64,000 nucleotides of DNA from Escherichia coli (lineage in GTDB: Bacteria; Pseudomonadota; Gammaproteobacteria; Enterobacterales; Enterobacteriaceae): NCBI RefSeq assembly GCF_013315695.1, contig NZ_CP054353.1; one strand, given 5' to 3'. A model generated the notes under the pieces. It was given only the letters and a program-made list of their open reading frames with translations. It ran no database searches and was not told where the DNA came from. Below, piece after piece: positions 1 to 57,585 of this stretch (the stretch's first letter is position 1; every line of letters begins with the position of its first letter). The position numbers were made by a program, and so were the translations under genes.

Positions 1-66
1 ACAGCTGGCAACAGGCAGCGGAAAGGTACGTCAGCTGGCAGTGCTCCTGAACCACAGGAGACGCGT

Positions 67-156
67 ATGAGCCTGGTGGATATCGCCATTCTTATCCTCA
101 AACTCATTGTTGCAGCACTGCAACTGCTTGATGCTGTTCTGAAATACCTGAAGTAA
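67..156 (+). CDS. tisB: TisB type I toxin (29 aa), SOS-induced membrane peptide; window begins inside the tisAB leader
   Basis: ATG at 67, 29 codons translating MSLVDIAILILKLIVAALQLLDAVLKYLK, stop TAA 154-156; near-identical to K-12 TisB as I remember it; followed by a hairpin terminator. Confidence 0.85.
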   Translation: MSLVDIAILILKLIVAALQLLDAVLKYLK

Positions 157-175
157 TTCAGATTCAAGTCGCACT

Positions 176-206
176 AAAGGGGAGCGGGTAACCGCTCCCC
201 TTTCAT
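176..206 (+). terminator. Intrinsic terminator of tisAB
   Basis: GGGGAGCGG / CCGCTCCCC stem with GTAA loop followed by TTT. Confidence 0.7.
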
Positions 207-435
207 ATTTAGCGTGCGGGTTGGTGTCGGATGCAATGCTGATGCATCTTATCCGCCCTACCATCCCTCCCGGCAACATTTATTGCCGCTTTTGTTTACA
301 TATTCTGCCGCTAAACAATTCCCCATTCCTGGCGTATATCTGGCTAACATTTATCAATGTGATAGATTCCTCTCCCGCATTTATGGGAATGCGTAGTGAC
401 TTATTCTAATTATTTTTATAAAAGCATCCGTGATA

Positions 436-1620
436 ATGAAAAGGCATAGAAACGTCAATTTGTTATTGATGTTGGTATTACTCGTGGCCGTCGGTCAGAT
501 GGCGCAAACCATTTATATTCCAGCTATTGCCGATATGGCGCGCGATCTCAACGTCCGTGAAGGGGCGGTGCAGAGCGTAATGGGCGCTTATCTGCTGACT
601 TACGGTGTCTCACAGCTGTTTTATGGCCCGATTTCCGACCGTGTGGGTCGCCGACCGGTGATCCTCGTCGGAATGTCCATTTTTATGCTGGCAACGCTGG
701 TCGCGGTCACGACCTCCAGTTTGACAGTATTGATTGCCGCCAGCGCGATGCAGGGGATGGGCACCGGCGTTGGCGGCGTAATGGCGCGTACTTTGCCGCG
801 TGATTTATATGAACGGACACAGTTGCGCCACGCTAACAGCCTGTTAAACATGGGGATTCTTGTCAGTCCGTTGCTCGCACCGCTAATCGGCGGTCTGCTG
901 GATACGATGTGGAACTGGCGCGCCTGTTATCTCTTTTTGTTGGTACTTTGTGCCGGTGTGACCTTCAGTATGGCCCGCTGGATGCCGGAAACGCGTCCGG
1001 TCGACGCACCGCGCACGCGCCTGCTTACCAGTTATAAAACGCTTTTCGGTAACAGCGGTTTTAACTGTTATTTGCTGATGCTGATTGGCGGTCTGGCCGG
1101 GATTGCCGCCTTTGAAGCCTGCTCCGGCGTGCTGATGGGCGCGGTGTTAGGGCTGAGCAGTATGACGGTCAGTATTTTGTTTATTCTGCCGATTCCGGCA
1201 GCGTTTTTTGGCGCATGGTTTGCCGGACGTCCCAATAAACGCTTCTCCACGTTAATGTGGCAGTCGGTTATCTGCTGCCTGCTGGCTGGCTTGCTAATGT
1301 GGATCCCCGACTGGTTTGGCGTGATGAATGTCTGGACGCTGCTCGTTCCCGCCGCGCTGTTCTTTTTCGGTGCCGGGATGCTGTTTCCGCTGGCGACCAG
1401 CGGCGCGATGGAGCCGTTCCCTTTCCTGGCGGGCACGGCTGGCGCGCTGGTCGGCGGTCTACAAAACATTGGTTCCGGCGTGCTGGCGTCGCTCTCTGCG
1501 ATGTTGCCGCAAACCGGTCAGGGCAGCCTGGGGTTATTGATGACCTTAATGGGATTGTTGATCGTGCTGTGCTGGCTACCGCTGGCGACGCGGATGTCGC
1601 ATCAGGGGCAGCCCGTTTAA
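436..1620 (+). CDS. emrD: MFS multidrug efflux transporter EmrD (394 aa from the ATG at 436; ORF track starts at GTG 430)
   Basis: Translation MKRHRNVNLLLMLVLLVAVGQMAQTIYIPAIADMARDL... matches EmrD as I remember it; 12-TM MFS-like hydrophobic profile. Confidence 0.9.
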   Translation: MKRHRNVNLLLMLVLLVAVGQMAQTIYIPAIADMARDLNVREGAVQSVMGAYLLTYGVSQLFYGPISDRVGRRPVILVGMSIFMLATLVAVTTSSLTVLIAASAMQGMGTGVGGVMARTLPRDLYERTQLRHANSLLNMGILVSPLLAPLIGGLLDTMWNWRACYLFLLVLCAGVTFSMARWMPETRPVDAPRTRLLTSYKTLFGNSGFNCYLLMLIGGLAGIAAFEACSGVLMGAVLGLSSMTVSILFILPIPAAFFGAWFAGRPNKRFSTLMWQSVICCLLAGLLMWIPDWFGVMNVWTLLVPAALFFFGAGMLFPLATSGAMEPFPFLAGTAGALVGGLQNIGSGVLASLSAMLPQTGQGSLGLLMTLMGLLIVLCWLPLATRMSHQGQPV

Positions 1621-1627
1621 GCTCACG

Positions 1628-2125
1628 TCACCGCAGCATCGTCATCAGCTCCATGGGAGAACGATGCTGCTTTATCAGATCACGCATCACCCGCATATGC
1701 GGCGCGGAGTAAGAATAAAACGCCTGATAGCCCGCACAAAGCACGTTGTCTGGCGTCTCCTCCCGAGCGTGCGGGCACAGCCGATGCCAGTCGCACGCCT
1801 GGCAGCCACGGCGCGGTTGCGGGTTTTCGCTGCCACACCATTTTTGTAGGGTGGCGTCAAAAAGCTCAATCGAAATACGACTGATATCTGCCCGTACCCA
1901 ACACTCGAACAGGGCAATTAAAAATTTCCCCCACAGCTCTGCTGTCACCGAAGCGGCCGTCAGATCGCCCCGGTCATCAAATTCAAGATGGGGAATAAGC
2001 TGTACGGAGCGGATACCCCGTTGTTTGAAATTGTGATAAAAATCGGCAGGTTGCAGAGCATCCTTGTACTCTACAACCAGTTTATGCCTGTCCTCTTCAG
2101 CATCAATGACCTGACTTCCTGTCAT
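1628..2125 (-). CDS. yidF: YidF, Cys-rich putative sulfatase-maturating enzyme-like protein (165 aa)
   Basis: 165-aa ORF with a C-terminal cysteine cluster (CxxC..C); position between emrD and yidG as in K-12. Confidence 0.75.
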   Translation of the reverse strand: MTGSQVIDAEEDRHKLVVEYKDALQPADFYHNFKQRGIRSVQLIPHLEFDDRGDLTAASVTAELWGKFLIALFECWVRADISRISIELFDATLQKWCGSENPQPRRGCQACDWHRLCPHAREETPDNVLCAGYQAFYSYSAPHMRVMRDLIKQHRSPMELMTMLR

Positions 2126-2484
2126 GCGACTCTCTCAATAAATACGATAAGTTGATGTATATGCGTTACAGCAAACAGTATTGCGAGAGATAACACCGCG
2201 AGGGAGATCAAAAATTTGTCACGGACTACGTGAAATTGGGAAAAATCGCTATTCGTGACATCCATTAAATTGCGATTACGGGTGTAGTGCCAGAGGATCA
2301 GCGCCACAATGGCGAGAATGCCAATCGAAATCCAGAATAACATGCCCGCCTGGTGCCAGTTGTGTTTGATAGCCAACGCCATCAACGCGCCGTAGCCCAG
2401 CATGGTACGAAACCACGCCAGTGATGTACGCTCCGGCTGCAGCCCTGGGTCGGCAATGCGTCTGGCTTTGCGGCTATCCGGCAT
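2122..2484 (-). CDS. yidG: Inner membrane protein YidG (120 aa)
   Basis: Small hydrophobic ORF overlapping yidF and yidH by a few nt; K-12 synteny. Confidence 0.75.
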   Translation of the reverse strand: MPDSRKARRIADPGLQPERTSLAWFRTMLGYGALMALAIKHNWHQAGMLFWISIGILAIVALILWHYTRNRNLMDVTNSDFSQFHVVRDKFLISLAVLSLAILFAVTHIHQLIVFIERVA

Positions 2485-2821
2485 ACAACACCAGTCCCAT
2501 AACGATCACCGCTACGACCATCAATATTAAGCTGATGATTAATAAGCTGTTGGTGTAGGGCAGGTCCTCTTTCAGACGCATCGCTTTTTCATTGCGTAAC
2601 CAGCGCAGGTAGCCATACATCGCTAACCCGCCGGAAAACAGACACAACAACAACGCCAGCAGTTCGCGAATGACGGGCGTGGCGAAATCTGGCGCAAGTT
2701 GATCAAGCCCAACCCCCGCCGCCAGAAAGCCTAGTGCGGTACGGATCCACGCCAGAAAAGTACGCTCATTAGCCAGCGAGAAGCGATAATCAGGTGCTTC
2801 TCCGAGGCGGGAAATTTTCAT
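2474..2821 (-). CDS. yidH: Inner membrane protein YidH (115 aa)
   Basis: Small membrane ORF, K-12 synteny. Confidence 0.75.
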   Translation of the reverse strand: MKISRLGEAPDYRFSLANERTFLAWIRTALGFLAAGVGLDQLAPDFATPVIRELLALLLCLFSGGLAMYGYLRWLRNEKAMRLKEDLPYTNSLLIISLILMVVAVIVMGLVLYAG

Positions 2822-2928
2822 TGTTGCTCCTTTGCAATTTCACTAACGCTCTACCTTTAGCGGTTTTTTTAAGAATTTCGTCCACCCGTTTCCTGATATG
2901 CTTTTGCCATCCGCTACAAGGAGGTCAG

Positions 2929-3378
2929 ATGGGTATCATAGCGCAAAATAAAATCAGTTCATTGGGCATGCTGTTCGGTGCCATCGCTTTAATAATGGGG
3001 ATTATCCATTTTTCATTCGGCCCTTTTTCCGCACCACCGCCAACGCTTGAAAGCATCGTGGCGGACAAAACGGCTGAAATTAAAAGAGGTCTTCTCGCCG
3101 GAATAAAAGGCGAAAAAATTACCACCGTGGAGAAAAAAGAGGACGTAGATGTCGATAAAATCCTCGATCAAAGCGGTATCGCACTGGCCATTGCTGCGCT
3201 ACTTTGCGCATTTATTGGCGGTATGCGTAAGGAAAATCGCTGGGGCATTCACGGCGCGCTGGTTTTTGGCGGCGGGACGCTGGCTTTCCATACCTTGCTT
3301 TTTGGTATCGGCATCGTGTGCAGCATTTTGCTGATATTCCTTATCTTTTCCTTCCTGACCGGCGGTTCACTGGTTTAA
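2929..3378 (+). CDS. yidI: Inner membrane protein YidI (149 aa from ATG 2929, preceded by GGAGG)
   Basis: SD GGAGG then ATG; hydrophobic 149-aa product; longer ORF-track start at 2794 lacks an SD. Confidence 0.75.
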   Translation: MGIIAQNKISSLGMLFGAIALIMGIIHFSFGPFSAPPPTLESIVADKTAEIKRGLLAGIKGEKITTVEKKEDVDVDKILDQSGIALAIAALLCAFIGGMRKENRWGIHGALVFGGGTLAFHTLLFGIGIVCSILLIFLIFSFLTGGSLV

Positions 3379-3386
3379 GCAGCCTG

Positions 3387-3422
3387 AATAATGCCCGCCG
3401 GGTGTTCATCAGCGGGCATTAT
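3387..3422. terminator. Bidirectional hairpin between convergent yidI and yidJ
   Basis: AATAATGCCCGC ... GCGGGCATTAT inverted repeat with 13-nt loop. Confidence 0.6.
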
Positions 3423-3424
3423 CG

Positions 3425-4910
3425 TCAGAACTTCTGTTTTTTCTCTTCCACCTTCACCCCTTGTGTCGGTAGGCCGGTGTCATAGTCGCGTACCACTGGC
3501 GAATAGCCATCTTGTGGGCGTGGACGAAACGCCCCCATCCAGCGCGGTCGTGCATCTTTACGCCACGGACGCAGACTCCACTGGTAACTGCGGAACGGAT
3601 CGCGAATTTTATCCATGTAATCCAATAAGGCGTCATGCATTTTGCGGCGAACGTCGGCAAAACGGATATCATCTATCAGGTTATGCATTTCATTTGAATC
3701 ATTACGGCGATCGTAAAGTTCATCACTGGTGAAGAGGTTGAGCACCAGTTTAAAGTCATCCGTCACCCAGCAACGCACCGGAATAAAACCGCCAAAGCTG
3801 TCATGCTCAATCTCGTAGCGGTTAAATTCCACCATTACACCGCGTGGCTCTTTCACGGCAAGGATATTTTCCCCCGGCAGAATCTCTGGTTTTTCAATAT
3901 CTGCCAGCGCCATCATTGTCGGCAGTAAATCGATATGACTGACTGGCGTATCGACCTGTCGCCGCTCCCCTTGCGGCGAACGGATGATCAGCGGAATGCG
4001 GGTGATGTCGTCATACATCGCCGCTCCTTTACTGATCAGCTTATGTGCGCCCATCATTTCGCCGTGATCGGAGGTATAAATGACCCACGTATTTTCACGT
4101 TGCTCTGACGTTAAGGCATTGATGACCCGTCCGATTTGGTCATCAACAAAGTCATTGCAGGCAAAATAGAGCGGATGGTGATAAAGCCCGTCATCACCGA
4201 CTGGCGATGGCATCGCCTGCGCCCATAAGCGGTGATGTTCCGGTTTGTTCGCCAGGTCATCCTGTGATTTCTCGCCAAGTTCGTAGTAAAAATCAGCGTA
4301 TTTCTCTAAATACTCCACCGGACAGGTGAACGGGTGATGCGGCTCATCATACGAAACCACCATCAGGAAGGGTTCCTCGGCGCGCGCGGGCTGTTGCAGA
4401 AAATCTACCGCCCGATTGCTGATGCGGTGCGCCCAGGTGAAGGTTTCGTCGATATGGTTCGCCTGTAAATCCTCAACGCTGTTTAGGCCATTGCGCCACA
4501 GGCTGATCTCTTTTTCCGTCAGTTCGCTAAGGTAGTTCGCCCCATCGAACCAGTAATCAGCGTCCCACTCCGGCGGACACTCGCCAGTGCCGAAATAGTC
4601 ATGACCGTCGAGATGCCATTTGCCGATGTAACAGGTGTGATAGCCCGCATCCTTAAAGTAGCGTCCCATAGTGGAGATGTTTTTGCCCGGCGCGACGTTG
4701 TTGGTCCACGGGCCGGACTGGTTAGCGTAGATACCGGTAAACAGCCCGGCGCGCGCTGGTGTACAAACCGGTGAACAGGTGTAGGCGGAATTAAAGCGAA
4801 TACTTTCCACTATCAATATTTTGCGTATTCAGCGGCTTACCGCTATAGCAACCGACCATATTGGTGGCCTGGGTATCGGTCATGATGAACAGAAAATTGG
4901 GGCGTTTCAT
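3425..4910 (-). pseudogene. yidJ: Cys-type sulfatase YidJ, reading frame broken near the N-terminus
   Basis: ATG at 4910-4908 (overlapping the yidK stop) opens a frame encoding MKRPNFLFIMTDTQATNMVGCYSGKPLNTQNID... that stops at 4793-4791; the rest of the sulfatase (CSPVCTPAR active-site motif onward) is in another frame, open only from about 4828 and reported from TTG 4816 to 3425. The two frames overlap within about 4791-4828. Confidence 0.7.
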
Positions 4911-6622
4911 AGGCTATCCTTCGCGTCGGGAGTAAAGGTTACGGCTGGGTCGTGACGATGCCGCCAGCTGTCAAAAATCAGGTAGACAATCACTACGGCA
5001 GCGATGAAATAACTGATCATCGCTAACCAGCGCGTACCGTAGCCGCCGAATTCAGCCAGCCCGGCATAGACGCCAATCATAGCGAACAGGATGCCAATTG
5101 ACGCGATCTTGACGTTTTTCCACGGTTTCATGTCCACCGCAAACGCATCTTTGAAGGTGAACGGCGTGGCGCGCGGTTTGATAAAACCGATCACCAGCAT
5201 CACGACCACGTTGATGCAGAACGTACAGGCCAGCACATAGAGGAAATGGAAGTCGAACTTCACCAGATAGTTGATGGTGATGTAGCTGATTATGCCAATC
5301 CCCATCGCCACTTTTGCCGCCAGCGCTGGAATGCGCGGGAAGAAAAAGCCCATAATGATGATGGTAACCAGCGGCACGTTGTAAATGCCGTTGAGCTGTT
5401 TCATCCAGCTATACAGCCCCTGCGGCGCGTTGGCGATCCACGGCGCTACCAGCACCGAAACGATGGCGATAAAGAAACCAAATTTGCGCCCGACGGTGAC
5501 CAGCTGCTGCGGCTCGGCATTCTGGTTAATGATGCGACGGTAAATACCCATACTGAATAACGTACTGGCGCTATTCAGAAAGCCGTTGAAGGTACTGATC
5601 ACCGCACCAAATAACACCGCGCCGAAGAAACCCACCAGTGGCACTGGCAGAACGTTATTGACCAGCGTCGGGTAGGCCATGTCGGCTTTCGGTAGATCCT
5701 GATACAGATGAAACGCAATCAACCCTGGCAGCACCAGTACCAGCGGGTCGAGCATTTTCAGCACCGCCGTTAACAGCGCCCCCTTTTGCCCTTCCGCCAG
5801 GCTTTTTGACGCCAGCGTGCGTTGCACGATGCCCTGATTTGTACACCAGTAAAAGGTGTTCACCAGAATCAAACCGGTAAATGCCGCGCCAATCGGCAAG
5901 GGATCGGTCGGGCCACCGACTGAGTTTAATTTCTCGGCGTGAACGGTGGTGAGTTGCTCAATGCCCTGCATAAAGCTGCCCTTGCCCATCGCGATCAGGC
6001 CAAATATCGGCACCATCAACCCGCCAATAACCAGCCCAATACCGTTGATGGAGTCCGCCACTGCCATTGCGCGCAGTCCGCCGATCACCGCATACAAAAT
6101 TCCCGCCAGACCAAGCAAAATTACCAATAGCCAGATAGCCGCACCGTGAGAAATCTGTAGCGATTCCCCGACGTGAAACAGGCTGTTGAGCGCCAACGCG
6201 CCGGAGTAGAGAACAATCGGCAGAAAGCAGACGCCGGTGGCAATGAGGAAGCAGAAGTCGATGATAATACGCGTCGTTTTATCATAACGTTCCTCCAGAA
6301 AATCGGGGATGGTGGCAATGCCGCGCTTCAGATAGCGCGGTAAAAAGATTAGCGCGAGGAAGATCAGCGTCACTGCAGAGGTGACTTCCCAGCCCATCAC
6401 CGACATGCCGCTTTTGTAGGCCTGCCCGGAAAGGCCGACCAGTTGTTCCGTGGAAAGGTTGGTTAGCATTAACGAAGCGGCAATAACCGGCGCTTTTAGT
6501 GAACGTCCGGCAAGAAAATAGCCTTGTTGCGATCCGGTATCTGTTTTACGGACCTTCCACCAGGTGATGATCGCCACCAGCAGCGTAAAACCGACAAAAC
6601 TCAAGATTTGTAACGAATTCAT
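4907..6622 (-). CDS. yidK: Sodium:solute symporter family transporter YidK (571 aa)
   Basis: 571-aa polytopic membrane protein; K-12 synteny between yidJ and yidL. Confidence 0.85.
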   Translation of the reverse strand: MNSLQILSFVGFTLLVAIITWWKVRKTDTGSQQGYFLAGRSLKAPVIAASLMLTNLSTEQLVGLSGQAYKSGMSVMGWEVTSAVTLIFLALIFLPRYLKRGIATIPDFLEERYDKTTRIIIDFCFLIATGVCFLPIVLYSGALALNSLFHVGESLQISHGAAIWLLVILLGLAGILYAVIGGLRAMAVADSINGIGLVIGGLMVPIFGLIAMGKGSFMQGIEQLTTVHAEKLNSVGGPTDPLPIGAAFTGLILVNTFYWCTNQGIVQRTLASKSLAEGQKGALLTAVLKMLDPLVLVLPGLIAFHLYQDLPKADMAYPTLVNNVLPVPLVGFFGAVLFGAVISTFNGFLNSASTLFSMGIYRRIINQNAEPQQLVTVGRKFGFFIAIVSVLVAPWIANAPQGLYSWMKQLNGIYNVPLVTIIIMGFFFPRIPALAAKVAMGIGIISYITINYLVKFDFHFLYVLACTFCINVVVMLVIGFIKPRATPFTFKDAFAVDMKPWKNVKIASIGILFAMIGVYAGLAEFGGYGTRWLAMISYFIAAVVIVYLIFDSWRHRHDPAVTFTPDAKDSL

Positions 6623-6788
6623 CTCATAGCCCTTATTTATGTTTATGTCCCGGACGCATGAATATAGGGAGAGGTAAAATGCGTCGGGTCAGGCAGTCAG
6701 ATTCTTAAAATACAAACATCGTATCCCTGAACGGATTGTTTTCTGTTAAGTTCAGGTTGTGAGCATAATTCGCCGGAGGGATATTAAA

Positions 6789-10617
<3,829 letters not shown>

Positions 10618-10912
10618 TTCCACATCCTCTTTTCTCAATTCTGTAAGTAGGAAGCCTGATTGGTTATGCGGCAGGCCTGGAGCGAGGATAGGAAGATGCG
10701 ATCGGCAGAACATGACGACCCAATGGGATTCGTGATCGCTTTCATGCTTTTCGTTGGGCGGTAGAGATCTACGTTTTCGCAAAAAAGTAGACATCTGTGA
10801 GCACTGGTACACAGCAACGAACACATCTTTAAAAAAAAGATGTTTTTTCAATCGATTAAGCAGAACTTGTGGGCGCATTACCCGGGCTTGCAGGCAAAAA
10901 AGAGATCTAGAG

Positions 10913-11200
10913 ATGATCTACAAAAGCATTGCGGAGCGGTTAAGAATTCGACTTAACTCCGCGGATTTCACGCTAAACAGCCTTCTTCCCGGTGAAAAAA
11001 AGCTGGCGGAAGAGTTTGCGGTATCGCGGATGACCATCCGTAAAGACATTGACCTGCTGGTAGCGTGGGGGCTGGTGGTCCGCCGCCACGGTAGCGGCAC
11101 TTACCTGGTGCGCAAAGATGTACTGCATCAAACCGCCAGCCTGACCGGGCTGGTGGAGGTGTTAAAACGCCAGGGAAAAACGGTCACCAGCCAGGTGTAA
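10913..11200 (+). pseudogene. yidP: GntR-family regulator YidP, N-terminal 95 codons only; truncated by IS4, whose terminal TAA supplies the stop
   Basis: Winged-helix GntR motif (LPGEKKLAEEFAVSRMTIRKDIDLLVAWGLV); ORF ends exactly at the IS4 inverted repeat at 11198. Confidence 0.8.
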
Positions 11201-12623
11201 TGCCAGTCAGTTAAGCAACTGACTGGCTCTTTTTCGGGGCTGTGGGGTATTTCCAGGGCCTCTCCTTTACCACTCTCGGGAAGGCCCTTTCCCTTCTTGT
11301 CGGTAATTTCACAAGTTGTCCCATACTTGCAAGATCGCGCATCAGCTCCGGTATACGTCCCGGTGAAGCGCCCTGCAATGTCATCAGCATTCTCATCACC
11401 ATTCCGCATGATTCTGAGAAACTCAGTTGATTCGGCCAGTAACCTTTCAGATGTTCCGCCATTTTAATCATCTGATATCTCACCAGATTATAAGCCAGTA
11501 AGACACCCCACAGCTCTTGCTCCACAAGCTCCGGTTTTTTACTTCTCAGCGTCAGCCTGCTCAGTTGCATCGTCTGTTTTATCTCCCTGTATCCCAGTTC
11601 GATTTCCCAGCGATGACTGTACAGATCCGCCATTTCTCCTCCGGGGAAGCGCATGGCGTCCGTCATCGACGTCAGCAGATGGCAGACTTTTCCTTTGCGC
11701 GTCACGGTCAGCAGGCGGGCTGTCACTTCATTTCCCAGTCCCGGCCACTTTTTTCGTGCCTGCGGGCTGGTTTTCAGCTTCACCAGATGATCGCCTTTAC
11801 CCAGTTTTCTGATCTCTTCATATTGCGCTCCCTTTCTGAGAGGTATCATCCAGTGGCGGTGTTCTCCCGCCAGGCTCCAGGCATTTAACAGTCCCAGTGA
11901 GTAATAACCTTTATCCATTAACGTCAGAGTGTTATCGCCGGTTTGTTCTATAAGTTGCTCAGCAAGCTCATTTTCGCTGTTCTTCATCGTGCCGAAGGCT
12001 GCAGCCGTCAGCAGATGGCTGGTCAGTTCCATCTGGCAGACCATTTTGACCTGCGGGTAGAGCGCCGGGTTCCCGGCATGTGTCTGGCGGGGGAAGGCTG
12101 CATCGTTCTCTGGTGTATCCGGTGTGCGCCAGAACACACCATCGATGGCCAGCAGGGTCAGGCCGCACCAGTGCGGATGCGGCGTGGCGTTATGCCAGAG
12201 CTGCGCTGTTTTCGTGAACACGCGGCGGACAGCCTCACTTCCCAGGCGCTGGCGGGCCTGAATAACGGCACTGGGGGCAACGAAGGGGCGATTGCCCGGC
12301 AGCATGATGTCCAGGCGATTCACAATCTGGTGAAGAGGTTCTTTACGCTCAAGCGCCATGCCAACAATACACCAGACCATCATTTCGAGGGGAAGACGGC
12401 GCTTGCGTAGCGTTACAGTACCTGATTCGGCAAGGCAACGAGAGATGAGTTCGGGGTCGAGGTAATCCCCCAGAGAAGTCAGTGGGTTACGCAGAGAATC
12501 GTAACGGGATACCAGATCAAGAGCCTGTCCAATGTGCATAAAAAAATCCGGAAACAAGTGAGCGTTTCCGGATTCTTACACAGCCACTGGATCGGTCAAC
12601 TGATCCTTAACTGATCGGCATTA
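11198..12623 (-). mobile_element. Complete IS4 insertion sequence (1426 bp) with imperfect 18-bp terminal inverted repeats
   Basis: Ends TAATGCCAGTCAGTTAAG (11198-) and CTTAACTGATCGGCATTA (-12623) match each other at 16 of 18 positions; 1426 bp total; contains an IS4-type transposase. The 12 bp flanking each side are unrelated (no target-site duplication). Confidence 0.9.
11211..12539 (-). CDS. insG: IS4 transposase (442 aa from [10 protein letters not shown]...)
   Basis: Translation matches the IS4 transposase as I remember it; ORF-track start at 12557 is 6 codons upstream. Confidence 0.9.
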
Positions 12624-12712
12624 CCCCCCTTTGAGACTATTTTAGCCACCAGCAAGAAACGTCTATACTCGCAATTTACGCAGAACTTTTGACGAAAGGA
12701 CGCCACTTCATT

Positions 12713-14209
12713 ATGGCTCACCCTCATTTATTAGCGGAAAGAATTTCCCGCCTGAGCAGTTCGTTGGAAAAGGGGCTTTATGAACGTAGCCACGCCATCC
12801 GCTTGTGTTTATTAGCGGCATTAAGTGGTGAAAGTGTGTTCCTCCTTGGCCCGCCAGGTATTGCCAAAAGTTTGATCGCCCGGCGCTTAAAATTCGCCTT
12901 TCAGAATGCCCGCGCGTTTGAATATCTGATGACTCGCTTCTCCACGCCGGAAGAGGTTTTTGGTCCCCTTTCTATTCAGGCGCTAAAAGATGAAGGGCGC
13001 TATGAACGTTTAACCAGCGGTTACCTGCCGGAAGCAGAAATCGTCTTTCTGGATGAGATCTGGAAAGCGGGTCCGGCAATTCTTAATACCCTGCTCACCG
13101 CCATTAACGAGCGCCAGTTCCGCAACGGTGCACACGTAGAAAAAATCCCGATGCGCCTGCTGGTGGCGGCCTCCAACGAGCTGCCGGAAGCAGACAGCAG
13201 TCTGGAAGCGTTATATGACCGCATGCTGATTCGTCTGTGGTTAGATAAAGTGCAGGATAAAGCGAATTTCCGCTCCATGCTGACCAGTAAACAGGATGAA
13301 AACGACAATCCGGTTCCTGCCTCCTTGCAGGTCACAGATGAAGAATATGAACGCTGGCAGAAAGAGATTGGTGAAATTACGCTGCCCGATCATGTATTTG
13401 AGCTGATTTTTATGCTGCGCCAGCAACTGGATAAATTACCGGATGCGCCTTATGTCTCGGATCGTCGCTGGAAAAAAGCGATTCGATTATTGCAGGCCAG
13501 CGCCTTTTTTAGCGGTCGCAGTGCTGTTGCCCCGGTTGATCTCATTTTGCTGAAAGATTGCCTGTGGTATGACGCGCAAAGCCTGAATTTGATACAACAA
13601 CAAATCGATGTATTGATGACCGGTCATGCCTGGCAACAGCAAGGGATGTTGACCCGCCTGGGCGCGATTGTGCAACGTCACCTGCAACTACAGCAGCAAC
13701 AAAGCGATAAAACAGCCTTAACGGTAATTCGTCTGGGCGGCATTTTCAGCCGTCGTCAGCAGTATCAACTCCCTGTTAACGTTACTGCTTCCACTCTGAC
13801 TCTGCTGCTGCAAAAACCGTTAAAACTGCATGATATGGAAGTGGTTCATATCACCTTTGAGCGTAGCGCGCTGGAACAGTGGCTGAGCAAAGGTGGTGAA
13901 ATTCGCGGCAAACTAAACGGTATCGGCTTTGCCCAGAAACTGAATCTGGAAGTTGATAGCACCCAACATCTTGTTGTACGCGATGTAAGTTTACAAGGCA
14001 GTACGCTGGCACTTCCCGGTTCATCGGCTGAAGGTCTGCCAGGTGAAATAAAACAACAACTGGAAGAGCTTGAAAGCGACTGGCGCAAGCAACACGCTTT
14101 ATTCAGCGAACAGCAAAAATGTCTGTTTATCCCTGGCGACTGGTTAGGTCGCATTGAAGCCAGCCTACAGGATGTCGGTGCACAGATTCGCCAGGCGCAA
14201 CAATGCTAA
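12713..14209 (+). CDS. ravA: AAA+ ATPase RavA (498 aa from [11 protein letters not shown]...)
   Basis: Walker A GPPGIAKS, Walker B LDEIW; K-12 synteny with viaA. Confidence 0.9.
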
Positions 14210-17799: not shown

Positions 17800-18075
17800 C
17801 AGATCGTGCGATCCACTGTGGATAACTCTGTCAGGAAGCTTGGATCAACCGGTAGTTATCCAAAGAACAACGGTTGTTCAGTTTTTGAGTTGTGTATAAC
17901 CCCTCATTCTGATCCCAGCTTATACTGTCCAGGATCACCGATCATTCACAGTTAATGATCCTTTCCAGGTTGTTGATCTTAAAAGCCGGATCCTTGTTAT
18001 CCACAGGGCAGTGCGATCCTAATAAGAGATCACAATAGAACAGATCTCTAAATAAATAGATCTTCTTTTTAACAC
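17800..18075. other. Chromosomal replication origin oriC
   Basis: Matches the canonical E. coli oriC in reverse-complement orientation: DnaA box TGTGGATAA at 17817-17825 (R4), TTATCCACA at 17997-18005 (R1), three AT-rich 13-mers (18019-18031, 18034-18046, 18050-18062) and dense GATC sites. Confidence 0.95.
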
Positions 18076-55464: not shown

Positions 55465-56268
55465 AAGGGATCAGCCAAATTTAGGTAACACGTTAAAGAC
55501 GTTACCGAACCAGCATAAAATTACGGTTATACCAAAGAGAATGACAATCGCCGGAATAAGATTGCCGCCCCAGACCGTGAACATCTGATTGGGAAACTTC
55601 TTGCGAGCTTTGATTGCCAGCACTGCGGGAATAATGACCGCCCAGATGGTGGCGCACAGTCCGGCACCGCCGATCCCGTAAATGAAGCCGTTCGGGAAGA
55701 TCAGATACAACAAAGCAGGTGGCAGGAAGGTTAACAGCACGGTTTTGAAACGCCCGCCGTGGGAGTTATCAATCTTAAACAGATCCGCCAGATAATCGAA
55801 CAATCCCAGCGTGACACCAAAGAACGAACTGGCAACAGCTAAGTTGGAGAACACCAGCAGGCAAAACTCGATAATCCCATGCTGTTTGGTGCCGAGGAAC
55901 GATTTCACCAGCGAATCAACGTTGCCGCCTGAGGAGATTATCGCCTTAAAGCTTTCGCGCGGAATATTCCCCATCGTGCAATAGAGCCAGAAGAGATAAA
56001 TCACCAGCGCCAGCAGCGAACCAAAGACCACGCTTTTGATTAACTTATCTTTGCGTTTGCCATAGCAAATAATCAGGCTGGGAATATTGCCGTGGAAACC
56101 AAATGACGCCAGACACACCGGCAAAGCCATAAAGATATACGGGAAGTAAGACGTTCCCGCAGTGGTGCTGGTGGCATCGCGCAGAATGGAGTAATCGACC
56201 TGGAAGAAGAAAGGGTGATGCTGCCAACTTACTGATTTAGTGTATGATGGTGTTTTTGAGGTGCTCCA

Positions 56269-56544
56269 GTGGCTTCTGTTTCTATCAGCTGTCCCTCCTG
56301 TTCAGCTACTGACGGGGTGGTGCGTAACGGCAAAAGCACCGCCGGACATCAGCGCTATCTCTGCTCTCACTGCCGTAAAACATGGCAACTGCAGTTCACT
56401 TACACCGCTTCTCAACCCGGTACGCACCAGAAAATCATTGATATGGCCATGAATGGCGTTGGATGCCGGGCAACAGCCCGCATTATGGGCGTTGGCCTCA
56501 ACACGATTTTACGTCACTTAAAAAACTCAGGCCGCAGTCGGTAA
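56269..56544 (+). CDS. insA: IS1 InsA (91 aa)
   Basis: [43 protein letters not shown]... Confidence 0.9.
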
Positions 56545-56966
56545 CCTCGCGCATACAGCCGGGCAGTGACGTCATCGTCTGCGCGGAAATGGACGAACAG
56601 TGGGGCTATGTCGGGGCTAAATCGCGCCAGCGCTGGCTGTTTTACGCGTATGACAGGCTCCGGAAGACGGTTGTTGCGCACGTATTCGGTGAACGCACTA
56701 TGGCGACGCTGGGGCGTCTTATGAGCCTGCTGTCACCCTTTGACGTGGTGATATGGATGACGGATGGCTGGCCGCTGTATGAATCCCGCCTGAAGGGAAA
56801 GCTGCACGTAATCAGCAAGCGATATACGCAGCGAATTGAGCGGCATAACCTGAATCTGAGGCAGCACCTGGCACGGCTGGGACGGAAGTCGCTGTCGTTC
56901 TCAAAATCGGTGGAGCTGCATGACAAAGTCATCGGGCATTATCTGAACATAAAACACTATCAATAA
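56463..56966 (+). CDS. insB: IS1 InsB (167 aa; expressed as an InsAB' fusion by -1 frameshifting)
   Basis: Overlaps insA in the -1 frame, canonical IS1 organisation. Confidence 0.85.
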
Positions 56967-57585
56967 GTTGGAGTCATTACCAGAAGAAAGAACCAAACAC
57001 GATCACAAAGGAGATAATCTTCAGCCCGAGGAACAATGAGGTAATACGACTGGCGGCTAACGAGCTTATCCACAATACGCTGGCAACGAAAATGGCTGTG
57101 CAGATCCCGACAATACGCGGATTAGCGTGATAGCCCAAATTCATTGATATTGTTTCACTAATGATCGCACCATTAGCAGAGATATAGGCATAAGTGAGGA
57201 TATAGAGAACGAAGGCAACGGTAATACCGCTGATAATGTTCCAGGTGTTACCGATTAAATCTTTGGTGATGGTGTTAAAACTGGAGCCGACAGGATAATT
57301 TAAATTTGCTTCTAATAACAATAACCCGGAATGAAGCATTGAAAACCAGGCAATGATAAGGATAAAGGCACCCCAGAAAAACCAGGCACCGGCAAGATCA
57401 ACAGGTAAAGCAAACATACCTCCACCAATTACTGTACCTGCTATAACCATAACACCCCAAAATGCAGAGTGCTTTTTTTCAGCTTGATCAGTCATGATGC
57501 CACCTTTAGAGGAAGGCTATTTTTGTTATTGAGGATGTAGGGTAAGAGAGTGGCTAACATCCTTATAGCCACTCTGTAGTATTAA

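Follow-up and report, generated by a model that had tools for sequence, protein, structure and literature searches.

An IS4 copy joining yidP to ravA marks a probable inversion of the oriC-dnaA segment in an Escherichia coli clone

In the 64-kb stretch of Escherichia coli DNA analysed here (the window), a single complete IS4 element joins the 5' part of yidP to the upstream region of ravA. We find it likely that this element is the product of reciprocal recombination between two inverted IS4 copies and that it marks a real inversion. Three lines of evidence carry this reading: near-identical uninverted genomes that retain both parental insertions with their target duplications, an inverted relative in which the halves of those duplications are swapped, and a subclade in which the same rearrangement is inherited. 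The rearrangement as such is real and heritable in the clone; in the window genome it probably arose as an event of its own.

Organization of the yidP-IS4-ravA junction

Coordinates are those of the window, and MSB1_4I is an uninverted relative described in the next section. The features that bear on the junction are as follows.

1-11197, unstranded: left block, not inverted, with the tisB/emrD side, yidF-yidL, glv-like PTS and 6-phospho-alpha-glucosidase genes and the yidP 5' part; collinear with MSB1_4I minus strand 32868-21664
10913-11197, plus strand: 5' fragment of yidP, encoding a GntR/HutC-family regulator, 95 codons from the ATG at 10913 (from the translation, the annotation 'missing C-terminus' and the end of K-12 homology at 11197)
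11185-11197, plus strand: CACCAGCCAGGTG, the 13-bp target duplication of yidP, here as a single copy with no partner on the far side of IS4; MSB1_4I and contigs L004, L006 and L007 carry both copies
11198-12623, minus strand: IS4, likely a recombinant copy that combines the left junction of yidP::IS4 with the right junction of the kup-ravA IS4 (from the comparison with MSB1_4I)
12624-12635, plus strand: single copy of the 12-bp kup-ravA spacer target duplication CCCCCCTTTGAG; MSB1_4I and IAI39 carry both copies
12624-12712, plus strand: the 89 bp that remain upstream of ravA, between IS4 and the ravA ATG at 12713; same context in 36 complete genomes with an IS4 at this place
12624-64000, unstranded: visible part of the putatively inverted segment, beginning with ravA, viaA, asnA, asnC, mioC, oriC, mnmG, rsmG, atpIBEFHAGDC and glmUS; on the opposite strand relative to the left block on MSB1_4I
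12624-64000, unstranded: remainder of the same segment, with lpf-O113, pstSCAB-phoU, an AT-rich island, yieH through mdtL, tnaB::IS1, tnaAC, mnmE, yidC, yidD, rnpA and rpmH (from the annotation)
17831-18062, minus strand: oriC, 5.2 kb from the IS4 junction; K-12 oriC aligned over 232/232 positions at 99.1% identity, in reverse orientation

Homology to K-12 stops exactly at 11197 and restarts at 12624 on the opposite strand, and K-12 itself has empty sites, with one copy each of the CACCAGCCAGGTG and CCCCCCTTTGAG targets. The original prediction had placed a complete IS4 at 11198-12623, cutting yidP after 95 codons, and had put the ravA promoter region right behind it. Coordinates, translation and the K-12 comparison bear out the first statement, with the TAA stop of the truncated yidP (11198-11200) supplied by the IS4 terminus, and the 89 bp left between the IS4 end and the ravA start codon agree with the second. 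The same prediction held that the ravA block lies in opposite relative orientation to the yidP block, which is what the strand switch against both K-12 and MSB1_4I demonstrates. As to how far apart the two genes lie in K-12, it was correct that oriC falls between them (yidP at 3,863,899-3,864,615, plus strand; oriC at 3,925,744-3,925,975; ravA at 3,929,597-3,931,093, minus strand), but the distance given, about 60 kb, has to be corrected to about 67 kb.

The element at the junction is a complete IS4 of 1,426 bp and the only IS4 copy in the window. Its termini, at 11198-11215 (TAATGCCAGTCAGTTAAG) and 12606-12623 (TAATGCCGATCAGTTAAG), form imperfect 18-bp inverted repeats that match at 16/18 positions, and it differs from the annotated IS4 of K-12 MG1655 at 4 of 1,426 bases (99.7% identity). 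A single transposase ORF occupies 11211-12557 on the minus strand, and its product differs from K-12 InsG by 2 amino acids; the domains PF13006 (Nterm_IS4) and PF01609 (DDE_Tnp_1) are recorded for the product of an identical IS4 copy (L005, GCA_964055605.1). By length, near identity to the reference, terminal repeats and DDE transposase ORF, the element belongs to the IS4 subgroup of the IS4 family. A promoter and terminator scan of the junction detected one promoter-like site, inside IS4, and one hairpin, at its left end, and no new hybrid promoter.

Around the window IS4 there is no direct target-site duplication of 11-13 bp. The sequence to its left, CACCAGCCAGGTG, and that to its right, CCCCCCTTTGAG, bear no relation to each other, and the window contains one copy of each, in keeping with the earlier observation that the flanks of this copy do not match. 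We attribute the missing duplication to the element being a recombinant of two copies, which makes it a property of the rearrangement rather than of the element.

Uninverted genomes retain both parental insertions

A junction-specific search of 5,426 complete RefSeq E. coli genomes recovered the two sides of the window join separately. The yidP-IS4 junction is present in two of them, MSB1_4I (NZ_LR898874.1) and AF3 (NZ_OZ547117.1), and the IS4-ravA junction is contiguous in 36, including IAI39 and CE10. The yidP-IS4-ravA join, with both junctions on one IS4, was found in none of the 5,426.

Closer examination of MSB1_4I revealed two mutually identical IS4 copies in opposite orientation, 71,613 bp apart. 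One interrupts yidP (yidP5'-IS4-yidP3') with the 13-bp CACCAGCCAGGTG on both sides, and the other lies in the kup-ravA spacer with the 12-bp CCCCCCTTTGAG on both sides. AF3 likewise has an IS4 in yidP, and by annotation its gene layout matches that of MSB1_4I and is otherwise uninverted; an intact direct CACCAGCCAGGTG duplication at yidP::IS4 also occurs in the uninverted contigs L004, L006 and L007. The window IS4 is bordered by one half of each of these parental duplications, its left flank being that of the yidP copy and its right flank that of the kup-ravA copy.

Outside the rearrangement the window and MSB1_4I are nearly the same sequence. Window positions 1-12627 align to the MSB1_4I minus strand at 32868-20234 with 1 mismatch and 1 gap, such that the left 12.6 kb differs by one 8-bp deletion and by no substitution outside the junction, and positions 12624-62624 align to the plus strand at 5226758-5276757 with 3 mismatches and 1 gap. 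Over about 62.6 kb the differences total 3 synonymous SNPs, the 8-bp deletion and one homopolymer (poly-A) indel. AF3 is somewhat further removed, with 10 single-base substitutions in the blocks bordering the IS4, 1 more inside its own yidP::IS4, the same 8-bp deletion difference and a 2-base homopolymer indel. The window IS4 shows 0 differences from either MSB1_4I copy, and since the parental copies and the window copy are all identical, the crossover point within IS4 cannot be mapped and the element bears no internal signature of recombination.

Related genomes carry the reciprocal junction

The 95-residue truncated YidP occurs in 1,431 blocks in the index of a large assembly collection, and the clone is therefore a widely sampled one. 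We tallied the arrangement at IS4 over the 24 longest contigs with the truncated YidP. The parental order, yidP5'-IS4-yidP3', is present in 13 of these, and the order of the window, yidP5'-IS4-ravA-viaA-asnA-asnC-mioC-mnmG, in 4, including L005 from GCA_964055605.1; a further 3 join yidP5'-IS4 to a gene fragment adjoining uvrD, and the other 4 stop at the IS4.

A look-up of the YidP 3' fragment then identified the counterpart of the window junction, kup-IS4-yidP3'-yidE (L015), on the same 5.18-Mb contig of GCA_964055605.1 as L005. Its flanks are exactly reciprocal, running from kup through CCCCCCTTTGAG-IS4-CACCAGCCAGGTG into the yidP 3' part, and the two junction IS4 copies of this genome are 71,612 bp apart. 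A second, inverted IS4 carrying the reciprocal duplication halves had been anticipated for the window genome, and it is in this relative that such a copy was located.

The rearrangement also follows descent. A marker SNP, 8998C, which gives Thr2Ala in the 6-phospho-alpha-glucosidase, defines a subclade represented by 214 blocks, and all six of its IS4-spanning contigs are inverted, including CP164765.1 from an unrelated accession series; the other 8998C contigs are short-read and end at IS4. The inversion is thus a real, heritable rearrangement in the clone. Together with the parental genomes, the swapped duplication halves and the reciprocal junction, this inheritance supports the proposal, made originally from the window alone, of recombination between two inverted IS4 copies. 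Literature searches found no paper describing this inversion.

Exchange between IS4 copies in the clone extends beyond this pair. In OZ039802.1, yidP::IS4 has recombined with a third IS4 adjoining corA/uvrD, in a 144.8-kb origin-spanning exchange that again left reciprocal duplication halves (CAGCAGAAGGTG), and IS4-IS4 recombination is therefore active in the clone. GCA_964044285.1 was considered as a source of a third recombination partner; its match covers IS4 positions 259-1426 only, at 97.5% identity with 14 gaps, and is not relied on.

One inversion or several

The window does not carry the 8998C marker and so falls outside the subclade that inherits the inversion. It does carry a C at position 18073, 11 bp outside the minimal oriC, an allele that it has in common only with the uninverted MSB1_4I; by comparison with K-12, IAI39, AF3 and the inverted relatives, this C is the derived state. 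This is the one parsimony-informative site in the 20 kb common to the window and an inverted relative, and what it says of descent is suggestive only. Taken at face value, 18073C places the window with an uninverted genome and therefore requires two changes of orientation, explicable by another, independent inversion, by MSB1_4I having reverted, or by a mis-join made in assembling the window. From these two markers we consider that the inversion in the window probably arose independently of that in the 8998C subclade.

A broader and more tentative reading, possible but on balance doubtful, is that the oriC-dnaA segment is a recurrently flipping block in an IS4-rich clone, with at least two origins (one basal to the 8998C subclade, one in the window lineage) and with yidP::IS4 as the hub. 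The hub would then have exchanged with the kup-ravA copy over 71.6 kb, with the corA/uvrD copy over 144.8 kb and possibly with a third copy. If the segment does flip recurrently, the position of the origin and its local context would be polymorphic within one clone, which would offer a natural experiment on how far relocation of the origin is tolerated.

An assembly artefact as the main alternative

The mis-join named above deserves separate consideration, given that it would remove the window inversion altogether. The source genome would be parental, like MSB1_4I, and the assembler would have crossed from one copy to another within the 1,426-bp IS4 repeat, producing a spurious inversion or one spurious join. 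Such an error would leave no internal trace because the parental IS4 copies are 100% identical; MSB1_4I has up to 18 IS4-matching places. The placement of the window fits as well: across the compared sequence its closest relative is the uninverted MSB1_4I, with 18073C in both, and the window lies apart from the lineage known to inherit the inversion.

Against this stand several features of the assembly and of the clone. Neither the IS4 nor an IS1 copy at about 56.2-57.0 kb interrupts the window, a continuity that implies long reads or bridging, and to reach a consistent circular chromosome an assembler would have had to make two mis-joins that complement each other, in a genome with many copies of IS4. 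The sequence is of high quality: the only indels against MSB1_4I are the 8-bp deletion and the one poly-A length difference; the deletion, which lies in yidJ and leaves a 39-aa YidJ fragment, recurs in 26 independent sets of short-read or metagenome contigs. Furthermore, the same rearrangement with both reciprocal junctions is present in related assemblies from unrelated accession series, and exchange between IS4 copies is demonstrably active in the clone. Misassembly across the repeat had been named as the main alternative when the junction was originally described; the relatives with the same rearrangement make it less likely, and we judge it an unlikely explanation of the window.

Mechanism and consequences of the inversion

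Under the preferred reading, recombination between inverted copies, identical IS4 elements would first have inserted into yidP, generating the 13-bp CACCAGCCAGGTG duplication, and into the kup-ravA spacer, generating the 12-bp CCCCCCTTTGAG duplication. Reciprocal homologous recombination between these oppositely oriented copies, presumably dependent on RecA, would then have flipped the 71.6-kb segment between them, with each junction IS4 ending up between one half of each duplication. The inverted segment would comprise ravA-viaA, asnA/C, mioC, oriC, mnmG, atp, glmUS, pst, tna, rpmH, dnaA-dnaN-recF-gyrB, dgo, ibpAB and yidE. Past the window end it would run on from rpmH through the dnaA-dnaN-recF-gyrB, dgo, ibpAB and yidE genes to the yidP 3' part, and the window genome itself should carry the reciprocal junction there, predicted near coordinate 84,200, about 20 kb past the end of the window.

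Intramolecular transposition of some IS elements can also give inversions bounded by inverted IS copies, and a single IS4 between unrelated flanks, all that the visible junction shows, would be compatible with a single element (e.g. the kup-ravA copy) having attacked yidP in one step without homologous recombination; we consider this extremely improbable, since uninverted near-identical genomes hold both IS4 copies with normal 12- and 13-bp direct duplications, such that both insertions are older than the inversion, since a one-step event would leave no direct yidP target duplication in uninverted relatives, and since the duplication halves of the inverted relative are swapped exactly as a reciprocal crossover predicts. 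Nor would the intact direct yidP duplication of MSB1_4I and of contigs L004, L006 and L007 fit a view of the uninverted genomes as later revertants of such a one-step inversion. The age of the insertions and the reciprocal swap are thus what lead us to homologous recombination.

An inversion by homologous recombination of this segment would have limited consequences for the chromosome. Because oriC flips within the segment, every gene switches replichore and strand at once, and GC skew is preserved along with the direction of genes with respect to replication; as an origin-containing inversion keeps the skew, GC skew is uninformative for detecting or dating the event; in the window its sign changes at about 18-20 kb, at oriC, and nowhere else near the junction. 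The two arms are unequal, 5.2 kb against about 66 kb, and oriC is therefore shifted by about 61 kb, which in a genome of 5.2-5.3 Mb alters replichore balance only slightly. In addition, ravA, kup and both halves of yidP face the same IS4 ends before and after the inversion. With co-orientation to the replication fork kept and the junction genes facing unchanged IS4 ends, the inversion may well be nearly neutral.

Significance and comparison with known systems

Recombination between inverted IS copies is a textbook, well-documented mechanism, and current understanding of it is unchanged by these findings. What they add concerns the clone and its genomics. Inheritance across a subclade is possible for a 72-kb inversion in which oriC is displaced by about 61 kb and the whole oriC-dnaA-atp neighbourhood is turned round, in agreement with the rule that genes keep their direction relative to replication in origin-spanning inversions. 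Part of a widely sequenced clone has a changed gene order near oriC and dnaA, a structural marker that short-read surveillance misses and an arrangement that could pass for misassembly or confuse reference-based scaffolding. Moreover, a single copy of IS4 can be the starting point of several different inversions.

Inversion of an intervening segment by recombination between inverted IS copies, with a copy left at each end, is established and is invisible to short reads; rearrangements in the long-term evolution experiment and IS recombination in mutation-accumulation lines serve as examples (PMC5009759). The inversion described here resembles such IS-mediated inversions in E. coli and Shigella in its inverted, identical IS boundaries, in the copy kept at each end, in the exchange of duplication halves and in the absence of any gain or loss. 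Inversions arising in parallel and hotspots of rearrangement are reported for IS-rich Shigella (PMC8072062), and the reuse of the yidP::IS4 copy parallels those hotspots. For IS4 in K-12, 1 copy and 0 recombinations are listed (Table 1, PMC5009759). Unlike K-12, where IS4 is single-copy and rarely active, the clone includes a member, MSB1_4I, with up to 18 IS4-matching places. The K-12 copy (insG, NC_000913.3 4,502,090-4,503,515) has the same 1,426 bp and terminal repeats as the window copy, but it is flanked by a 12-bp duplication whereas the window copy has none.

A further close analogue is the rrnD-rrnE inversion that distinguishes W3110 from MG1655, which reportedly spans oriC. The two are alike in that each is origin-spanning, arises by recombination between inverted repeats, is well tolerated and leaves the direction of genes with respect to replication unchanged. 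They differ in scale and symmetry: the W3110 inversion involves rRNA operon repeats of roughly 5 kb and several hundred kb placed roughly symmetrically about oriC, whereas the present one involves 1.4-kb IS4 repeats and very unequal arms of 5.2 kb and about 66 kb. Relative to other IS-mediated inversions, the present one stands apart in that its small 71.6-kb segment holds both oriC and dnaA.

IS4 copies and a second origin-spanning inversion

The element in the spacer between kup and ravA, one of the two IS4 copies proposed to have recombined to invert the 71.6-kb segment containing oriC, carries the same 12-bp duplication in IAI39 (5990-7439 of region L001) and in MSB1_4I, a near-identical, uninverted complete genome; in the window, the copy of this duplication lies at 12624-12635. 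IS4 and ravA are joined without a break in 36 complete genomes of diverse host origin, CE10 included. Either the insertion is old and shared, or IS4 prefers this target.

The IS4 copy inserted in yidP has also recombined with a third IS4, in OZ039802.1. The gene into which this third element inserted, between corA and uvrD, is phosphodiester-glycosidase-like, and the duplication at the insertion is 12 bp long (CAGCAGAAGGTG). Exchange between the yidP copy and the third copy has produced a reciprocal origin-spanning inversion of 144.8 kb in this other member of the clone (IS4 at 10286-11711 of L009 and 8547-9972 of L019, two regions of OZ039802.1), and the join of corA, IS4 and the 3' part of yidP is also found in a scaffold from 2013 (L021; GCA_000408405.1). 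On the strand from which yidP is read, a perfect 11-bp hairpin followed by a run of T lies just inside the left end of IS4 (window 11202-11227); judging from its terminator-like form, it would be predicted to stop the truncated yidP transcript.

Markers within the clone

On the question of whether the inversion has recurred, a single site is parsimony-informative. At window position 18073, on the mnmG side of the minimal oriC and 11 bp outside it, a T-to-C substitution is common, among the sequences compared, to the window and MSB1_4I only, the C allele being derived with respect to K-12 and IAI39.

A separate observation concerns the following gene:

3425-4910, minus strand: yidJ, sulfatase-like gene

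Compared with MSB1_4I, AF3 (also near-identical, complete and uninverted) and all other long relatives, yidJ lacks 8 bp (GCCGCCAG) at window position 4808, and the resulting frameshift breaks the gene into an N-terminal fragment of 39 aa and an ORF of 463 aa. Because 26 contig sets, from short reads or metagenomes, share the deletion, it is not a sequencing error and marks a real sublineage.

Accessory loci in the probably inverted segment

32271-37253: lpf-O113-type long polar fimbria operon between glmS and pstS, comprising lpfA, lpfB, lpfC and one more fimbrial protein gene
About 42500-49400: strongly AT-rich island between phoU and yieH, whose three large ORFs encode 794, 395 and 808 aa
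About 56212-56981: IS1 within tnaB (low-affinity tryptophan permease)

The IS1 in tnaB is shared with MSB1_4I and AF3, and a second IS1 in the relatives lies in dgoD, beyond the window. With a GC content of 0.31-0.35, against about 0.51 nearby, the AT-rich island was probably acquired horizontally. A poly-A tract (about 42578-42586) at the 5' end of a large AT-rich ORF at 42504-45010, for which the MSB1_4I annotation gives a 'type III effector protein' with a frameshift, comprises nine residues in the window, eight in MSB1_4I and seven in AF3; these differences could represent phase variation or long-read homopolymer error. In K-12, the corresponding place between phoU and yieH is presumably occupied by the bgl operon and neighbouring genes.
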